From: Octopus vulgaris
Lineage: Eukaryota
Direction: 5' to 3'
Assembly (NCBI GenBank): GCA_951406725.2
Contig: OX597816.1
Coordinates: 164,052,001-164,116,000, forward strand
Length of the DNA stretch: 64,000 bases
Shown one piece after another: positions 968 through 52,989 of the stretch. Each line of letters starts with the position of its first letter. The stretch's first letter is position 1. A model generated the notes under the pieces. The model did not search any database, had not been told where the DNA came from, and worked only from the letters and a program-made list of their open reading frames with translations. The position numbers and the translations under genes were made by a program.

Positions 968-1015
<48 letters not shown>

Positions 1016-1027
1016 GTATGTATATAT
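339..1027. repeat. Compound (TA)n/(TG)n/(TATG)n microsatellite, representative of dozens of similar tracts in the window
   Basis: Dinucleotide repeats read directly; they explain the YIYI/CVCV ORFs in the track. Confidence 0.97.
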
Positions 1028-1232
1028 CAGATAGCATGAAAACAAGGCAGGTACGTAGCTGTCACGTTCTGGAATGTAAGCTAAGTAATGAGAAAATGTA
1101 ATTTATTTAAATCTGACATAACATTTCTTGGAAACTAAAAAAAATACACGACTTTCCCTCATATTGTTAATATAAATAACATACAACATTAGATTTACAT
1201 GGAAAGGCTGAGGAAACATAATCTATTTTTCC

Positions 1233-1272
<40 letters not shown>

Positions 1273-1858
1273 TCTGCCTACATTCAATCGTATATTCCTA
1301 AATATTAAGAATATGTTAGGATGCACACACGCACACAAATAGGAGTATAGATATATGTGAGCGTCCATATCAATGCATATTTAGGAAACTAAATATATGT
1401 GTGTGTGTGTGTGTGTGTTTTCATGCGTGTGAGTGTCCATATTGCCAATATATATATATGTGAATATATATATATATGCAAATGCATGCATATGAATATA
1501 TGTATGTATACAAGTATATACATACGCATATATGCATGAGTATATATATATATAATATAAATAATAAAAAGCATCCATATATGTGTGTGTGTGTGTTCGT
1601 GCTAAAATCCTATATAGATATTATCCTTGATTATAATTGATATATATATGTATATATATATATATATATATGCATGTATGTATATATACACACATCGTTG
1701 GCGATTTTTTTCCCTCCGTCTTCCTTTTCTCTTGGACTTTCCTTCTCTCAGCGTCTGCTAATACTTTGCATGTGCCACATCCTCGCGTTGTTGTTTTTTC
1801 TTGTGATTTTTCTTCATTTTTTGGTGGGGATTAATTTTATATATATATATATATATAT

Positions 1859-2018
<160 letters not shown>

Positions 2019-2121
2019 AATAATACTCAATAATAATATATATATATGTATGTATGTGTATATATATATATATACACATATATAAAAATATGTATACCCA
2101 AACATACATCTGATGTATAGT

Positions 2122-2171
<50 letters not shown>

Positions 2172-2183
2172 AGTTATATATTA

Positions 2184-2285
<102 letters not shown>

Positions 2286-2324
2286 TTATGCATACGCAAA
2301 TGCACATTTATGTAGATATCTATG

Positions 2325-2367
<43 letters not shown>

Positions 2368-2839
2368 GTTTGAGAAGGAGAGAGCGTATGTGTGTGTGTG
2401 TGTGTGTGTGTAATGAAACATCAATACAACTGTCAACATCATTAAGTTTATGATCACCCTTAATAACGCTATTTATCTCAATCTGTCAACATCTCGATTG
2501 TAAACAATTAACCATTAATATAGGTGATGTCACCTTTATTAATAAACGATATCAAACATAATATTAGAGTGTCGACAATGTCAGAAACAAGCAAACTAAT
2601 ATCACAATCATTGGTTGTATACTATGTTGAAAGAAAAAATGATGCAATTGGAAAATATCTTTGCAGAAATGATGCATCGCTGTAATGTTTCCCTTGTATT
2701 AATCAATGTTTTTCGAATCAGTAACTGGAGGTGAACGAGTATCAGTGGTTCTTACATCTGTTTTTTGATGTAGCTACTGTGGCTGATCTTTTGTTGCTTA
2801 GTCCAGGTTTACTTGGTTATAAGTATCTATATGCGTGTA

Positions 2840-2899
<60 letters not shown>

Positions 2900-2900
<1 letters not shown>

Positions 2901-3080
2901 ACTCGTTTTTCTTTCACTGTTTTGTTTCCTGTTTACATCCGTTTTCTCACTTCATTCCTTTCTGCAGAACAGCTTAGACTCGAAACGTCAAAGCCTTCTA
3001 TTTTTTCCTGAGCGTGAAACTAATATACTTTGTTGTTCGCTCACCTGTCTTTGTCTTTTGCTTTTTGTTCAATTGTGAGC
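2900..3080 (+). mobile_element. Short PLE-derived terminal remnant with degenerate minimal hammerhead-like motif
   Basis: TCTGCAGAACAGCTTAGACTCGAAACGTCA followed by a tail shared with the copies at 7700-7900, 17905-18050 and 36480-36665; flanked by microsatellites. Confidence 0.5.
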
Positions 3081-3280
3081 CACATATATACATATATGTA
3101 TGTACAGACATGTAATATGCATGCACACATACATGTATCTATAAGTGTGTATGCATACACGTGCGCTTGGTAATGCAGCAAAGCAGTTGTTACAATAGTA
3201 ATAAAACAATTGATTGCCAAATTGTCTCCTATTGTAAGTGGTATAAGATGTCCCATATATGTAACATTAGAATTGTTACA

Positions 3281-3320
<40 letters not shown>

Positions 3321-3973
3321 AACACGCATATAGATGTATTGTAATTTGGTTCTTGCTATTCTCATCTGAATTATAACCACAAAATATTTCTCCGTACACT
3401 TTACTTATTTGTCTTCTATTTGAAATGGGAAACCTTTCCCGAAATATTATGAGATCGCTAAACTACGCAGGTCAAATAACACAAAATCATTTTTCTTTTC
3501 GTTTTTCATTTATTTACATCACCTTGCATTTTGCCTAATCTCTCACCTGTGTTGCTCAAAGATTTTTTTTTCAGATCCTTTCTAATTTTATATTATCTGT
3601 ATCATTCTGCCGGCTACAAAGGAAGTTCTGCAACTATTTTATCGACTTCCTTTATAGCTTCTCAGTCCGCCATTAACGGATTAATTGGATTTATATTTAT
3701 TTGTTTCGTTTTGTTTAAATTGTATCAACTCTAATGACATCAGTTCATGTGAATTTATAATCGCGACCGAATCGGTCGGATAGAGGATAATCAACCAAAA
3801 GGTAAGAGGTTCACACCTTACACTAGATCTTCAACCAAGACAAACGTTGAAATAGAAAGGTAGAAATAATAACTTGTCAATATAAGCAGAGGGAGCAATA
3901 TATATACATTTACATACATACATATATACATACATACATACATACATATATATATATATACATATATACATAT

Positions 3974-4062
<89 letters not shown>

Positions 4063-4231
4063 AAGTGTCTCGGTAGTTTATTACGCTATGTTGCATTCCG
4101 TTTATTCGTTGAAATTGTTGAAGAATGGACTGTATAATCTCTGCTAACCTGGATTTTTCTTGACCAACTTTATGAAGACGAAACCTCAGTGTTTATCCAA
4201 TGCCTCTATGAATTGGGACAACCCAATACTA

Positions 4232-4840
4232 ACCCAATGGATTATGGGATACATCATTTTCTAAACTCTGGATTATTGGAAATCTCTCTGTTCTCGTTAT
4301 GGATTTTGGGATATTACACATCATGGTATATCCCAGATTTTACCGTATGGATTATATTATATTACAGCTTAACCCTGTGGATTGTGAGATATCTCAACAT
4401 TGATTCTATGGATTATCTAACTCATCAGTTTTTATTCTATGGATTAACGGATTTCATAGTGTTGACCCTATGGATTATACAACACACAAGTATGGACTTA
4501 ATGGATTATAACTACCCCCATATTGCCCTCATGGATTAACTAATTCCCCAATTCTAACCACGTGGATTACAACAATCATCTGTACTGAATACGTGGATTA
4601 GTGGCTCACTAATCTGAATCCTCTGGATTATATTGTATGACTCAGTAATGTTCATCCAACGGATTATACAATTTAACAGCTCGGAACCTGTGGATTATAA
4701 AACTTACCAATATTCACCCTATGGATTAAGGGATACACTTTCATTGGATTAACGGAATACTAATACTCCTCCACTCTAAATAATAAATTCAAGGGTATCA
4801 ACTCCAGTGGATTATCGTGCTCAGCAATATTTTCACCTTA
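4232..4840. repeat. Degenerate ~31-bp-period tandem array with near-invariant TGGATTA core
   Basis: GGATT starts at 4239, 4270, 4301, 4349, 4379, 4410, 4441, 4472, 4503, 4533, 4564, 4595, 4625, 4661, 4692, 4723, 4746 and 4809. Confidence 0.9.
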
Positions 4841-5432
4841 TTCGACACTCGCCAACCAAGAATCATTCTTGTCTTGATTTTTTGCCATATGTTGATCCCT
4901 ATGGCTGGATTTATCACCCCTTGGTGTTTTCAAGATTTTCATTTCCTTTATGTTATCTAATGTTCACAAAATTTGGTTGGTGATATTGTCATTATAGACA
5001 AAGAAAAGAAAATCAGAGAGCATTTTAATGATTAGAGGAAGTTCATTCTGTTCTGTCAAGGTTATCAGGTTTAGCAGAAATTCCACCGTCCATTCTTGGG
5101 AAATGTCTCTATGTGTCCTCTATTCAAACACATAACAAAACACGTATACACATATAAACAATACATGTAAATATACATGTAAATACACACACACACATAT
5201 ATAAACGCGCACACGCATGCTCACACACGTATATACGTAAATGATGTCATAGTACTGTTAATGTAGTAAATTACGATGACGTTAATGCGATTTTTGTTGT
5301 AGTAGTTGTTGTTGTTGATGATGATGATAGAAATATTAATGTGTAAGCGAGAAAAAATTGTTTTCTAATGCATGCTATTTCGGAGTTTCACCAAGGTTCT
5401 TGCATCTTAAAGCTGAAACGATGGGGAACAGG

Positions 5433-5515
<83 letters not shown>

Positions 5516-5531
5516 CTCTATATATATATAT

Positions 5532-5695
5532 GGTTGTGGAGGTGGATGTGTGGTAAGAAGCTTGCTTCCCAACAACATCATTCCGGGTTCAGTCCCATTG
5601 CGTGGCAACTTGGGCGGCTGTCTTCTACTATAGATTCCGGCCGACCAAAACCTAGCGTGCGGGTTTCGAAGACAGAAACTAAAAGAAGCCCGTTG
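5532..5695 (+). mobile_element. SINE family A (octopus OK/OR-like tRNA-derived SINE), 5' half
   Basis: Matches the head of the full copies at 19890, 25184 and 45411 (GTGTGGTAAG...GGGTTCAGTCCC). Confidence 0.85.
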
Positions 5696-5914
5696 TATAT
5701 GTGTGTGGTGTGTGTGTGTGTATGTGGGTGTGTGTGTGTGTGAGTGTGGATGTGTATATATACGTATATATATATATATATATGTATGTATGTGTATATA
5801 TATACGTGTGTGTGTGCGCGTAAGTATATTCATACATACATATATATATGTATGTAATGTATATGTGTGTGTGTATATCTATATCTATCTAGCTATATAT
5901 ATATATATATATAT

Positions 5915-5950
<36 letters not shown>

Positions 5951-6276
5951 CGTACGTAAAAAGCTGTGCTATGTGTAATTCCACGAAATAGTTTTCATTA
6001 AATGGACGATTAAATTTTCCTTTAATAAGCTATATGATTAAATCTTTTATTAATAACAGCTTACTGTTATAATATATCCATATATATGCGTTTATATGGA
6101 TTAGTATATCTGTGGGGGATGACTGTGTGTGTGTGCGTCATAGTCTGTGTAGTTACGTATCTCTGTTTCCTCTCTGTCTGCAGTTAAATTAAAAATGCAC
6201 TCACCAATATGTCTTTCTGGTGAATGGCTATTTATCCTAAATATCACAGCGTTGGCTGGCAATAGCTTAGACATGT

Positions 6277-6347
6277 GTCACGTGACGTAGAGTAATATGG
6301 CTGCTGTTATTTATGTTTTAGGTCATTGTCACGTGATTGTGACGTGG
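6277..6347. promoter_or_regulatory. Cluster of E-box/CLEAR-type motifs plus a YY1-like site; candidate promoter or enhancer
   Basis: GTCACGTGAC at 6277-6286, GTCACGTGAT at 6328-6337, GTGACGTG immediately after, and AATATGGCTGC between them. Confidence 0.35.
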
Positions 6348-6459
6348 AGAGAGGGACGGGAATTTCGAGAGTTTTCTTTGTTTTTTTTTGTTTTTTTACT
6401 TCTTGTCGTGGGATATTTGGACTGATACACGCGCGGGCACATACACACACACGCACACG

Positions 6460-6520
<61 letters not shown>

Positions 6521-7501
6521 ATATAAACTAATTATGTGTCACTGCGTGTGTGTATATATATATATAGAGAGAGAGAGAGACTGATAGATAGATAGATATA
6601 AACTAAACATGTGTGTGTGTGTGTGCGTATACATATATACATATATATATATACGTTATATATATATATAGATATATATATATATATAAATAAATATATA
6701 TATATATATAAATAAATATATATATATACATATAAATAAATATATATATATACATATATATATATATATGTTTGTGTGTGTGTATGCGTATAATTGAAAC
6801 TATAAGGTTAACTGAACAGCTTTAATATTAGGAGACAGCCTGGCTGTTGTAACTTTACTTAGGGCGATATAATTGCTATAATTAAGTATTTGGATATGTT
6901 TTGTTTTTATTTATTTATTTGTTTGTTTATCTATTATCATTATTATTATTGTTGTTGTTGTTGTTGTTGCTGTTGTTAATCGCTTGTTATATTTGATTTC
7001 CTCTAATAATGAATTCTTTCTTTGGCACAAGGCCATTGCATGTATTCGTACTGCAGGAATATAACTAAATCAGTCTCCAAATTGTTACCATAATCGATTA
7101 TATCGATCACAGGATAAATATATACACACTTGATTACAGTGTGATTTAAATGTTAAACAATAAAGGAGCTAAAATATGAACGGCAAGGTGCCTAAACATT
7201 AGGGAGGTATTTGGGAACCCTAAGTAGGTCATGCGCTTTTGTTGCCCCCGTTTAGAAGTACCCGTCCTCCCCTCCAATGGTGATTAATTATTTTTAGTGG
7301 GATATACTTCGTTGTTACCCTGTTCAGCTTTCTCATTTATTACTTGGGTATCTCTAGTGTAATCTACCCGGTTACAAACATTCAAAGCAATGTCTCGTAT
7401 CTGTGTATAATTTCGTACCCCCAGATAATTATATTCTGGTATCAACCGATCCCCTAATCCAATATTTCGAATATATATATATTTTTTGGGGGGGGGATAT
7501 A

Positions 7502-12183: not shown

Positions 12184-12255
12184 TTCCCATGCCGGGAATC
12201 GAACCCGGGCCGCCTGGGTGAAAGTCAGGAATCCTAACCACTAGACCACATGGGA
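12184..12255 (-). tRNA. trnE-TTC: tRNA-Glu(TTC)
   Basis: The reverse strand reads TCCCATGTGGTCTAGTGGTTAGGATTCCTGACTTTCACCCAGGCGGCCCGGGTTCGATTCCCGGCATGGGAA. It has a perfect 7-bp acceptor stem, intact A and B boxes, anticodon TTC and a TTTT terminator 5 nt downstream. There is one A-C mismatch in the anticodon stem. Confidence 0.92.
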
Positions 12256-14266: not shown

Positions 14267-14609
14267 ATAAAACGGTAAGATAACAAAAGAAAGAAAGAGA
14301 CCTCAATATTATGTAAATAGAGGAAATTTATCTATATAATATGTTACATTACTCGGTAGTCAAGATAAAACTCTGAGTTTCAGATGCCGAAGTGGAAATC
14401 CACAACACCATCTCTTCGGTTATCTGGCTATTTGAAAACGTTATGAAAAAATACCGTTAAAAATGAAGGGAAATTACTCTGTTATAACTCTGCTTTGCCT
14501 GCGTACGTATACATCGCTCGCATTTTTCGTCATAAAAATTATATAAAAAAACATAAAAATATATAAAAATATATAAAATCTTCTTGGGACATAACACAGA
14601 AAGCATGTT

Positions 14610-15167
14610 CTATCCGTTTTCTTTAGGGGACCAAAAACGTAACAGAAATTTAGTCACATGTGGGCATGATCCGAAAAGCTCTGTCCTTGTATTTAGACAT
14701 GTGGTAGGGTCTAAGCTGCTTTTCCAGATAAGCCATCTCTCCATGTCGCATAAACCGCACCTTCCGCTGCCGTTAGTGTAGGGCTTACATCTGGCCAAAA
14801 TCTTCCATTGTATGTTATAATCGACACCTTTATCTCTTAAAGACCAAATATGATTGGATAATTGTGTCGCTTTTCTTTTGTTCCAGTGCCTAAAGCTCAA
14901 AGTGTGGTTATTGAACCTGGCCTTGAAATTACCCTCTGTCAGGCCCACGTATTTCTTCGTCGAAACGGTGTCTTTAGTGGTTATAGAGTTTACGGTAGCT
15001 TCATATATGATGGTCTTGGACATGCAAGCTCCATTTAGCGGGCACAATTCTTTATTCCTGCATGAACAGCTGTTTTCTTCTTGTGTTTTTTTGTATGTTA
15101 TGATTGATTATGTTTTTAAAATTGGTAGTTGAACTAAAACTAATTTTTAAATTGTGTCTATTGAAGA
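14610..15167 (-). pseudogene. Inverted duplicate of the PLE GIY-YIG fragment
   Basis: Same peptide from CPLNGAC to ENG*, with a 1-nt longer A-run near 15086-15092 that shifts the upstream frame. Confidence 0.85.
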
Positions 15168-15209
15168 AATAGGAAGGTCATCTGGTTTACGCCCCCTTAC
15201 TCACCCGAG

Positions 15210-15842
15210 GTGGCCTTCAATATAGGTAAATATTTCCTAGCACTGATAGATAGACATTTTCCAGTTAACCATGCTTATAGGAAACTCTTCAATAGACACA
15301 ATTTAAAAATTAGTTTTAGTTCAACTACCAATTTTAAAAACATAATCAATCATAACATACAAAAAACACAAGAAGAAAACAGCTGTTCATGCAGGAATAA
15401 AGAATTGTGCCCGCTAAATGGAGCTTGCATGTCCAAGACCATCATATATGAAGCTACCGTAAACTCTATAACCACTAAAGACACCGTTTCGACGAAGAAA
15501 TACGTGGGCCTGACAGAGGGTAATTTCAAGGCCAGGTTCAATAACCACACTTTGAGCTTTAGGCACTGGAACAAAAGAAAAGCAACACAATTATCCAATC
15601 ATATTTGGTCTTTAAGAGATAAAGGTGTCGATTATAACATACAATGGAAGATTTTGGCCAGATGTAAGCCCTACACTAACGGCAGCGGAAGGTGCGGTTT
15701 ATGCGACATGGAGAGATGGCTTATCTGGAAAAGCAGCTTAGACCCTACCACATGTCTAAATACAAGGACAGAGCTTTTCGGATCATGCCCACATGTGACT
15801 AAATTTCTGTTACGTTTTTGGTCCCCTAAAGAAAACGGATAG
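15210..15842 (+). CDS. PLE ORF C-terminal fragment: RT thumb/linker plus GIY-YIG endonuclease (Naiad-like)
   Basis: Open from RKVIWFTPPYS through NIGKYFL, CSCRNKELCPLNGAC, IIYEATV...KKYVGLTEGNFKARFNNH, LSNHIW, CGLCDME and SCPH. The track's start is not a true start because the element is 5'-truncated. Confidence 0.85.
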   Translation: MAFNIGKYFLALIDRHFPVNHAYRKLFNRHNLKISFSSTTNFKNIINHNIQKTQEENSCSCRNKELCPLNGACMSKTIIYEATVNSITTKDTVSTKKYVGLTEGNFKARFNNHTLSFRHWNKRKATQLSNHIWSLRDKGVDYNIQWKILARCKPYTNGSGRCGLCDMERWLIWKSSLDPTTCLNTRTELFGSCPHVTKFLLRFWSPKENG

Positions 15843-16021
15843 AACATGCTTTCTGTGTTATGTCCCAAGAAGATTTTATATATTTTTATATATTTTTATG
15901 TTTTTTTATATAATTTTTATGACGAAAAATGCGAGCGATGTATAAGTACGCAGGCAAAGCAGAGTTATAACAGAGTAATTTCCCTTCATTTTTAACGGTA
16001 TTTTTTCATAACGTTTTCAAA

Positions 16022-36752: not shown

Positions 36753-37710
36753 AACTGTTGTTCAAAACTGTCAAGTCATAGCGCCCTTTGTCTTTTTCTG
36801 GCGAAATATACTACCCAAATTCATGAAACTTGCCTCTAGATAGAAAATGGAATAGGTGTTGAAATATTCAAATTTATTGAAATCCAAAGAGAAATTAGAA
36901 AATAATTTTTAAAAATCATTCAGAGCCGATAATCTTCGATTTGAAATATGAAGTTCCCGCCACAGAGTCATCTTCCGCTTTCGTCAATGTGAGCGCCATC
37001 CAACATATCGATGTATTAAACAGCATTAAACCGGCCAGCCATGATGACAAGTCGCAGCTTTCCATTGGTGGATATTGCTCTCCACACCATAAGACCTCTT
37101 CTACTATTTTGCCACTCGGAATAAGTGGAATTTTGTATATATTTATCTGCTCAGTAGTACTTTAAAACCGTCGAGGTCATCCAAATTCCATTTGTTCTCA
37201 TCAGAGGACAGAACCCTGGTCCATTTACCATTCCAGGTCTGATGCAACCGAGAAAACTCCAATGTAACAGCTTTATAGGAAGGGGACAGTAACGGGCGCC
37301 CTAACCGTTTCTTCAGGTGGAAACCATGGTACAAAATCATTCTTTTTACGCTGGATGTCTAGGTTCCTTCTCCCGCTGCTGCCTTGATTTAGAAATAGAA
37401 GAGCAGCTCTGACAATAACCCTTCCATCCCTTTCTGATGTAGCCCCGGGACGTCCCTCGGCATGAAACCTGTTGTAGTTGTCTGGATTTTTAATCTTCTC
37501 GGCAATCTTCCGAATACTCATTCCTCCCGCTTTCAGCGCGAGAATCTTCCCATACTCAATTTCGGAAAGCTTTGTGGCCTTAGGTTTAGAGGAAATATAA
37601 GCTGGATCACAGTGAATACGATGAAGTTGAATATTTTCTGATACAATCTGGAAAGAAATGAAAATAGAAAATATATATTAGTGGTTTTATTAGTTTTGAA
37701 GTGTTGGTAT
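36750..37710 (-). mobile_element. Tc1/Tc3-like DNA transposon remnant (transposase pseudogene)
   Basis: Reverse frames give LSEIEYGKILALKAGGMSIRKIAEKI (HTH), GRP, WTRVLSSDENKWNLDDLDG (first catalytic D) and LMVW, with frameshifts and weak TIRs. Confidence 0.85.
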
Positions 37711-46731: not shown

Positions 46732-47020
46732 ATGATCAACTTCGATGGTATGGACACGGGGCGTGTGGATTTCAGCTTAGTGGAGCGGAACAGGATACTG
46801 GCCGCAGCGGCTGCCGCAGCCGCCGCCGGGAACCCGGTTTCTTTAGGTCCGCCCAGTCTTGGACCAAGCTATGATAACCACCGTCCAAATGTGGCGGCCG
46901 GAGTGCCTCGGAGTACAGTTTCGGAACTGGCCGCTCGTACGGGAACACCATCTGCACTGAGTTCTATGGGACACTACCCTAAAAGCTACTTACCTCATTC
47001 AATGGCTCTCAGATCAACCA
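46732..47020 (+). CDS. Probable first coding exon of an unidentified gene (poly-Ala, Pro/Ser-rich N-terminus, transcription-factor-like)
   Basis: The only non-repetitive GC/CpG-rich island in the window. In-frame TAA at 46720 precedes ATG 46732, the poly-Ala uses mixed codons, and a consensus donor GTAAGT sits at 47021 (phase 1). Confidence 0.75.
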
Positions 47021-47119
47021 GTAAGTAATTTGTTTCTTCTTTCACGTTTTTCCTCTTTACTAACACACAGCTACGAGACTGATCGATCACGTGGAATGGA
47101 CCCATCGAATCTCTCGTTA

Positions 47120-52821: not shown

Positions 52822-52989
52822 ATTATTATTTTTTTTTCTCTTTCTAGTTTCAGCTCAGAGCTGCGGCCATGCTGATGCACCGCCGTTTAAAACAGTGTGT
52901 ACGGGATGGCGCCAGTGGTTTCAAGGTTAGGAAGAGTCTAGCAGTAAGATTCAGTTTAAACGAAGTAACCACACGGCTAAGCCCGCACG

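Follow-up and report, generated by a model that had tools for sequence, protein, structure and literature searches.

An array of 18 diverged 31-bp tandem units in the genome of Octopus vulgaris, with the core TAATCCA conserved on the minus strand, is a real and selected non-coding element of unusual layout that is probably transcribed. The reading placed first here, tentatively and at somewhat under even chances, is that the array belongs to a minus-strand, spliced non-coding RNA with 18 UAAUCCA docking sites for one factor. The window, i.e., the whole 64-kb stretch of DNA that was analyzed, is AT-rich, microsatellite-laden and gene-poor. Two features go beyond the preliminary description of this DNA: an inverted repeat with 56-bp arms that encloses the array, and a minus-strand splice donor inside it (Table 1).

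Table 1. Features of the array locus, with positions counted from the first base of the window
Feature	Position	Strand	Basis
Array of 18 diverged 31-bp tandem units; core TAATCCA conserved on minus	4232–4840	-	Motif positions, unit alignment and cross-species protection
Left arm of imperfect inverted repeat around the array	4121–4176		41/57 columns match right arm
Right arm of the array's inverted repeat	5042–5097		Match to left arm
Splice donor TTG/GTAAGT, last exonic base 4708	4702–4710	-	Use suggested by X17 contig branch
Putative non-coding exon, 3 cores and right arm	4708–5135	-	X17 record 6; small ORFs; organism F indels
622-nt segment with 15 cores and left arm, candidate intron with partial retention or alternative 3′ end	4086–4707	-	X17 records 4 and 5; contig-graph simulation
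Candidate acceptor, exon resuming at 4085	4085–4088	-	X17 record 4 ends at 4085
Two AATAAA hexamers (4106–4101, 4082–4077), candidate polyadenylation signals of the unspliced form	4077–4106	-	Sequence
Second donor-like site, in left arm, 7/9 consensus, last exonic base 4149; candidate back-splice donor	4143–4151	-	Consensus scan
Best acceptor-like site, first exonic base 4956; candidate back-splice acceptor	4956–5030	-	89-nt AG-free zone with pyrimidine tract
AT microsatellite, left bound of unique stretch	3898–4059		Repeat listing
Short low-complexity repeat, right bound of unique stretch	5150–5189		Repeat listing

The preliminary description counted 18 GGATT cores on one strand, 16 of them GGATTA, and the motif positions bear this out: the cores start at 4239, 4270, 4301, 4349, 4379, 4410, 4441, 4472, 4503, 4533, 4564, 4595, 4625, 4661, 4692, 4723, 4746, and 4809. 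Their reported spacing of mostly 30–31 nt also holds, since 10 of the 17 gaps are exactly 31 nt and three are 30 nt, the others being 48, 36, 23, and 63 nt. An off-register GGATT at 4449 was missing from the earlier list, and positions 4151 and 4907 hold further stray copies. Counted over the entire window, GGATTA shows no enrichment (31 occurrences against an expected 43.5), and 16 of the 31 fall within the 580-bp array stretch. Tandem Repeats Finder at score 40 gave no entry within 4232–4840. Left of the AT microsatellite, an isolated degenerate core pair (3676–3692) is similar to the unit at 4441. The low similarity between units that had been noted is genuine, but the spacers are not unrelated: their mean pairwise identity of about 0.43–0.44 compares with 0.35 for shuffled spacers and lies above all of 200 shuffles (maximum 0.38). 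They are thus homologous copies, the array is an old minisatellite derived from one 31-bp monomer rather than a repeat-and-spacer array, and the formal likeness to CRISPR that had been drawn must be given up because the spacers share ancestry. No credible match of any spacer was found elsewhere in the window, and both strands of the array fold worse than 19 of 20 shuffles, i.e., the array is unstructured.

Retention of the motif had been put down to selection, and this stands. Over the 18 units, 123 of 126 letters are retained in the seven columns of the core while the remaining columns average 55%, and uniform decay failed when checked on the unit alignment, none of 200,000 neutral star simulations matching the core retention even at 78% per column. 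Because retention within the array might be a leftover, the core was also compared with a second species (organism F), in which the orthologous locus lies in one contig and aligns over 4069–5143 with 79 differing letters and 25 gap letters. The comparison listed 40 of 77 differences, and record counts place at most one other in 4085–4707; the selection test was therefore confined to that range. Substitutions in 4232–4707 affect 0 of 105 core positions and 25 of 371 other positions (p = 0.0016), a protection that persists without CpG sites (p = 0.0026) and in the worst case of one unlisted difference placed in the six-letter core (p = 0.027). Offsets -1 to +7 form the protected segment, with zero changes in 4232–4707, and the A that follows TAATCC is retained in 17 of the 18 units (p = 0.0003 to 0.014). 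The first listed core change, at 4722, lies just past the tested range, and two changes fall in the stray core at 4151, which is out of register. Four indels fall within the array. If all unlisted differences sit right of 4839, a presumed placement, the right flank is about twice as diverged as the array (12% vs. 5%). Judged from these alignments, the seven-letter core is under purifying selection.

The same core reads exactly as the consensus of K50 homeodomain proteins (PMC6004077), TAATCC being intact in 16 of the 18 units, which would suit a role at the DNA level without any RNA and counts against the docking-site reading. A close and only somewhat less probable rival accordingly treats the array as a homotypic DNA cluster bound by a zinc-finger protein or by a homeodomain factor of the K50 class (Otx, Pitx, Gsc, Dmbx). 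The cluster would lie close to where a non-coding by-product transcript begins, with an alanine-rich coding exon some 42 kb downstream. Clustered K50 sites suffice for activation (PMC6004077, in excerpt), and Otx, Pitx, Gsc, and Dmbx1 are each present as one gene in the octopus (PMC9699675, table S2). Bicoid/Otd clusters likewise hold multiple TAATCC copies (PMC6004077, same excerpt), whereas the octopus sites all have one orientation and a tandem-repeat origin. The gene-poor window agrees with such a cluster, as does the greater age of the units compared with the arms (unit-to-unit divergence 1.07 vs. 0.24–0.31 between the arms), as if the cores had already been selected as DNA sites inside a mobile element. 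The invariant part, however, includes the A after TAATCC, and K50 factors are not known to prefer an A there. Adjacent 31-bp gaps amount to 2.95–2.98 turns and phase is kept within runs, but the earlier proposal that all sites share one DNA face fails, as the phase breaks three times, at the gaps of 48, 36, and 23 (resultant 0.25–0.49), and the four organism F indels within the array also speak against a phased cluster. Nor does the kept period hold as a sign of selection: its probability, calculated with the indel rate between the two species, ranges from 0.004 to 0.64 by assumption, so that period retention is not robustly beyond neutral expectation. The coding exon itself (46735–47022, plus strand) is GC-rich and coding-like, contains a run of alanines, and has a donor close to 47022; the neighbor gene (46735–47019) had no homologue beyond a self-like protein match, and a weak Atlas lead to T-box genes (Optomotor-blind, 0.84) is below the reliable range.

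The enclosing arms match better than expected by chance, none of 2000 dinucleotide shuffles attaining their score. In the rest of the window, 78 equal placements were compared and only four attain it, all on an inverted retroelement duplication at 14.6–15.9 kb, where a GIY-YIG (Penelope-like) fragment is duplicated in inverted orientation (14477–15895). The arms are predicted to form a stem of about -49 kcal/mol in RNA of either strand. In organism F, the 56-bp left arm shows four substitutions and one deletion, hence the stem is not visibly conserved, and wobble asymmetry gives no signal, with two mismatches favoring each strand. The inverted repeat would represent an RNA stem or else the end of a transposon, now decayed. 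The suggestion that the array might be transposon-borne gains from the enclosing repeat and loses from the target-site duplication and paralogous copies that were searched for and not found: the best candidate duplication is 4 bp, matched or beaten by 281 of 1000 shuffles, although age might erase one; no second copy of the element lies within the 64-kb window; and organism F contigs, which show presence and not absence, hold one full-length copy at 80% likeness. The parts of a Helentron (subTIR with nearby complement, GTCY-type microsatellite, 3′ palindrome), as defined in the available part of PMC7492417, are absent. A transposon origin of the element is plausible.

These observations bear on an unlikely alternative, namely that the locus is a dead MITE-like element whose cores are past transposase sites, now functionless, and whose transcription is incidental. 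An inverted repeat around a central tandem array recalls MITEs and the Helentron HINEs (Cg_HINE, miDNA4; excerpts of PMC7492417 and PMC9659126), and MITEs with internal tandem arrays are known from the latter source. The octopus locus shares with MITEs its inverted repeats, in the form of imperfect 56-bp arms, and its lack of coding capacity; it differs in a monomer of 31 bp vs. 140–180 bp in Cg_HINE (PMC7492417, in excerpt) and, as against MITEs and HINEs in general, in having neither target-site duplication nor subTIR, palindrome, or GTCY parts, with no paralogues found. A public contig, L082, holds a young element of like build, which agrees with the MITE-like account, although the core was in the search pattern. 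At L082:526–910, inverted arms match at 16/16 positions with the 6-bp direct repeat TATAAT on both outer sides, and the interior carries doubled GGATTA cores with variable spacers that are 0.50 alike. To judge from its sequence, it resembles a MITE of recent origin that bears an array of protein sites, and it is evidence that GGATTA-core arrays do occur in young inverted-repeat elements; it has no homology to the octopus array. Against a functionless remnant, protection of the cores continued after the species split at the orthologous locus. The single full-length copy in organism F, the lack of a second in the window, and the want of a target-site duplication beyond chance and of Helentron substructures point the same way.

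The case for transcription comes from contigs of one run of organism F, X17, which we guess to be RNA, as we do run X9 of organism A; X17 contigs total 51 million letters vs. 2,075 million for the DNA run and are thus transcriptome-sized. X17 covers 4085–5135 in four records. Records 6 and 7 both start at 4708, the latter with one foreign letter, which marks a branch between 4708 and 4707, exactly at the last exonic base of the putative donor. Candidate sites were recognized by the consensus words for splicing and polyadenylation. GGTAAGT occurs just once on the two strands of 4065–5145 taken together, its chance at a given place being 8e-5, and donor-like sites with at least 7/9 consensus number four on the minus strand and none on the plus strand. 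Record 4 stops at 4085, immediately past a minus-strand YAG (about 3% by chance). The first of the two AATAAA hexamers (4106–4101) is altered in organism F. Contig depth, a rough hint, is 37 on the branch vs. 13.2 on the read-through.

In a label-only contig-graph simulation, a 622-nt intron (4707–4086) plus a branch at 4084 reproduced all four X17 records. A rival model with a distant acceptor, an RNA end at 4085, and a further branch did as well at the cost of one more assumption, and six other splice models reproduced two or three of the four. All models required a one-sided branch at about 4705–4706; when it was modeled as a bubble, at most three of the four records were matched. Both fully successful models place 15 of the 18 cores beyond the donor. 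We therefore infer that the array is transcribed from the minus strand with a donor at 4708, and that 15 of the 18 motifs lie beyond it, most simply within a partly retained 622-nt intron. Against splicing stands the fact that a single run of guessed RNA status carries the evidence. No junction-spanning joint was found in the four contig sets aligned to 4065–5145, and X9 crosses the 4708 donor unbroken at a depth of about 4. Run X13 yielded only a 40-base chance piece. The RNA over the array lacks coding capacity: the longest minus-strand ATG frame in 4085–5135 has 34 codons, and organism F carries frame-breaking indels across the putative exon. A coding repeat was considered and rejected, the 133-codon plus-strand frame at 4138–4539 being without a Pfam match and frameshifted in organism F. 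Rfam gave no family in the array at gathering score or E ≤ 1, and its 93 weak matches in 1000–7000 all lie on microsatellites. A-to-I editing left no sign in majority letters, A>G and T>C counts being the same in the organism F contigs of guessed RNA status and in its DNA contigs. At 6199–6430, a stretch that looks promoter-like to the eye is enriched in CpG, contains CACGTG twice, and has a donor-like GTGAGT on the minus strand near 6204; this stretch could supply the same transcript with an upstream exon.

The preliminary description had raised an RNA scaffold of repeated UGGAUUA sites among its alternatives. The splice evidence favors RNA, but of the opposite strand, with UAAUCCA instead of UGGAUUA. 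In the preferred docking-site reading, the array would lie in a minus-strand, spliced non-coding RNA whose 18 UAAUCCA copies dock one factor, either a microRNA-loaded Argonaute, with GGAUUA as predicted seed, or an RNA-binding protein; at a guess, the two partners are about equally probable. Splicing of the 622-nt intron would leave three sites, and the unspliced RNA would carry all 18. The two arms are predicted to pair in the unspliced RNA, the left arm would bear the pyrimidine tract of the acceptor, and the pairing may favor intron retention. Besides the 8mer, microRNA site classes include the 7mer-A1 and the 7mer-m8. Canonical shapes of these kinds occur on the minus strand in 16 of the 18 units (nine 8mer, six 7mer-A1, and one 7mer-m8, with the 8mer defined as in the available part of PMC9699675). 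Seed positions 2–6 are conserved in 18/18 units, the terminal A in 17, position 7 in 16, and position 8 in 12, the last no higher than background. Because this is the order expected of microRNA sites, the docking-site reading is preferred. Unspliced or intronic RNA is nevertheless a poor site for cytoplasmic microRNA action. A window scan for hairpins gave no convincing microRNA hairpin with the seed, and the squid microRNA table in the accessible part of PMC8125070 has no GGAUUA at the seed position.

The site pattern is moreover symmetric and fits the 5′ end of a small RNA equally well, which counts against the docking-site reading. Another alternative is a precursor of phased piRNAs of about 31 nt that start at the U of UAAUCCA, with a common seed and differing 3′ parts. 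U stands at position 1 in 16 of the 18 units and positions 2–7 are intact in 17; the period is near piRNA length (about 26–30 nt; excerpt of PMC12479628); and the satellite-derived tapiR1/2 of Aedes offers a precedent, likewise with about 20 head-to-tail units, a conserved part, and transcript overlap (bioRxiv 2020.01.15.907428, available in part). Yet the conserved part of tapiR1/2 is the piRNA-bearing segment, and the tapiR1 seed alone fails to silence, about half of the piRNA having to pair (same excerpt), whereas the octopus units have just 7–9 letters in common and no conserved segment of piRNA length was found among their monomers. The period, too, bears no firm sign of selection, and such a precursor is a long shot.

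A decidedly unlikely variant of the docking-site reading is that the RNA of the locus forms a circle. Many seed-type sites, about 70, with conserved cores and variable spacers are known from ciRS-7/CDR1as, where inverted repeats flank the site-bearing region. The octopus array resembles it in its seed-type sites, conserved cores, free spacers, and flanking inverted repeat; it differs in having 18 sites, with no back-splice junction or cognate microRNA found. An 808-nt circle from the 4149 donor to the 4956 acceptor would hold all 18 sites for a lineage-specific microRNA, and the 4708 route would discard 15 of them. The inverted arms would bring donor and acceptor together, and the locus might thereby switch between a sponge and a nearly site-free RNA. 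Pairing in the stem is best at 4121–4145 with 5073–5097, just outside the two sites, no organism F change touches 4143–4151 among the differences listed, and X9, which may be DNA, covers 701 of 808 bases inside the circle interval and 0 of 273 outside. X17 record 6 passes the acceptor-like site at 4956 unbroken. Octopus circular RNAs are low overall according to the available part of PMC9699675.

A parallel to a linear docking RNA is the lncRNA hsr-omega (93D) of Drosophila, likewise a single locus of fast-diverging tandem repeats that keep a short motif, for which a role in protein landing was proposed (bioRxiv 695486, in excerpt). The octopus array has this trait in common with it, a non-coding RNA whose repeats at one locus have diverged around a short retained motif, its RNA status being guessed. 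It differs in extent (about 0.6 kb vs. >10 kb) and in motif, a different heptamer vs. a nonamer bound by hnRNPs, and its internal donor and enclosing inverted repeat are features of its own. By analogy, the array would work most like hsr-omega or ciRS-7, while its construction is that of a MITE around a central array; it was not seen to have all defining features of hsr-omega, ciRS-7, or MITEs and is filed under none of them. Zmast and Zfest are conserved octopus Z-linked lncRNAs (bioRxiv 2024.12.09.627507), and nothing ties the array locus to them; the accessible part of that preprint contains no "motif" and no relevant "repeat."

Scans of other sequence collections gave 77 viral loci, 71 of them without any 31 gap and judged coding or simple repeats, and 62 metagenome loci, of which 51 were scored and two had spacer identity ≤ 0.5, none under the window's ~0.43. 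None of these 139 loci is homologous to the octopus array (best E 0.29). Twelve of the loci (L080, L081, L095, L096, L101–L103, L107, L108, L113, L114, and L122) form a family of AT-rich 31–32-bp repeats with TGGATTA cores from one soil-type metagenome data set, with spacer identity of about 0.6–0.95. Elsewhere in the window, Pfam searches of 148 of the 159 filtered frames returned two sub-threshold transposon matches and nothing else; a Tc3-like transposase fragment below the Pfam cut-off lies at 37276–37677 (minus strand). A vault RNA match above the Rfam gathering score (41.4 bits) at 52895–52988 (minus strand) stands beside repeat-like sequence and may be SINE-derived, and a tRNA match of 61.7 bits lies at 12184–12255 (minus strand).

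At the level of search listings, the literature gave no description of the array locus, and no sponge or motif-array lncRNA was described there in coleoid cephalopods. This group gained many new microRNA families with conserved sites (PMC9699675, in excerpt). An 18-site array with a splice switch predicts a factor that recognizes UAAUCCA or TAATCCA. If the array acts at the DNA level, it would clearly exemplify how a minisatellite can become a dense cluster of homeodomain sites. On either reading, it would be a functional non-coding element, its action itself conjectural, in a genome with few known.
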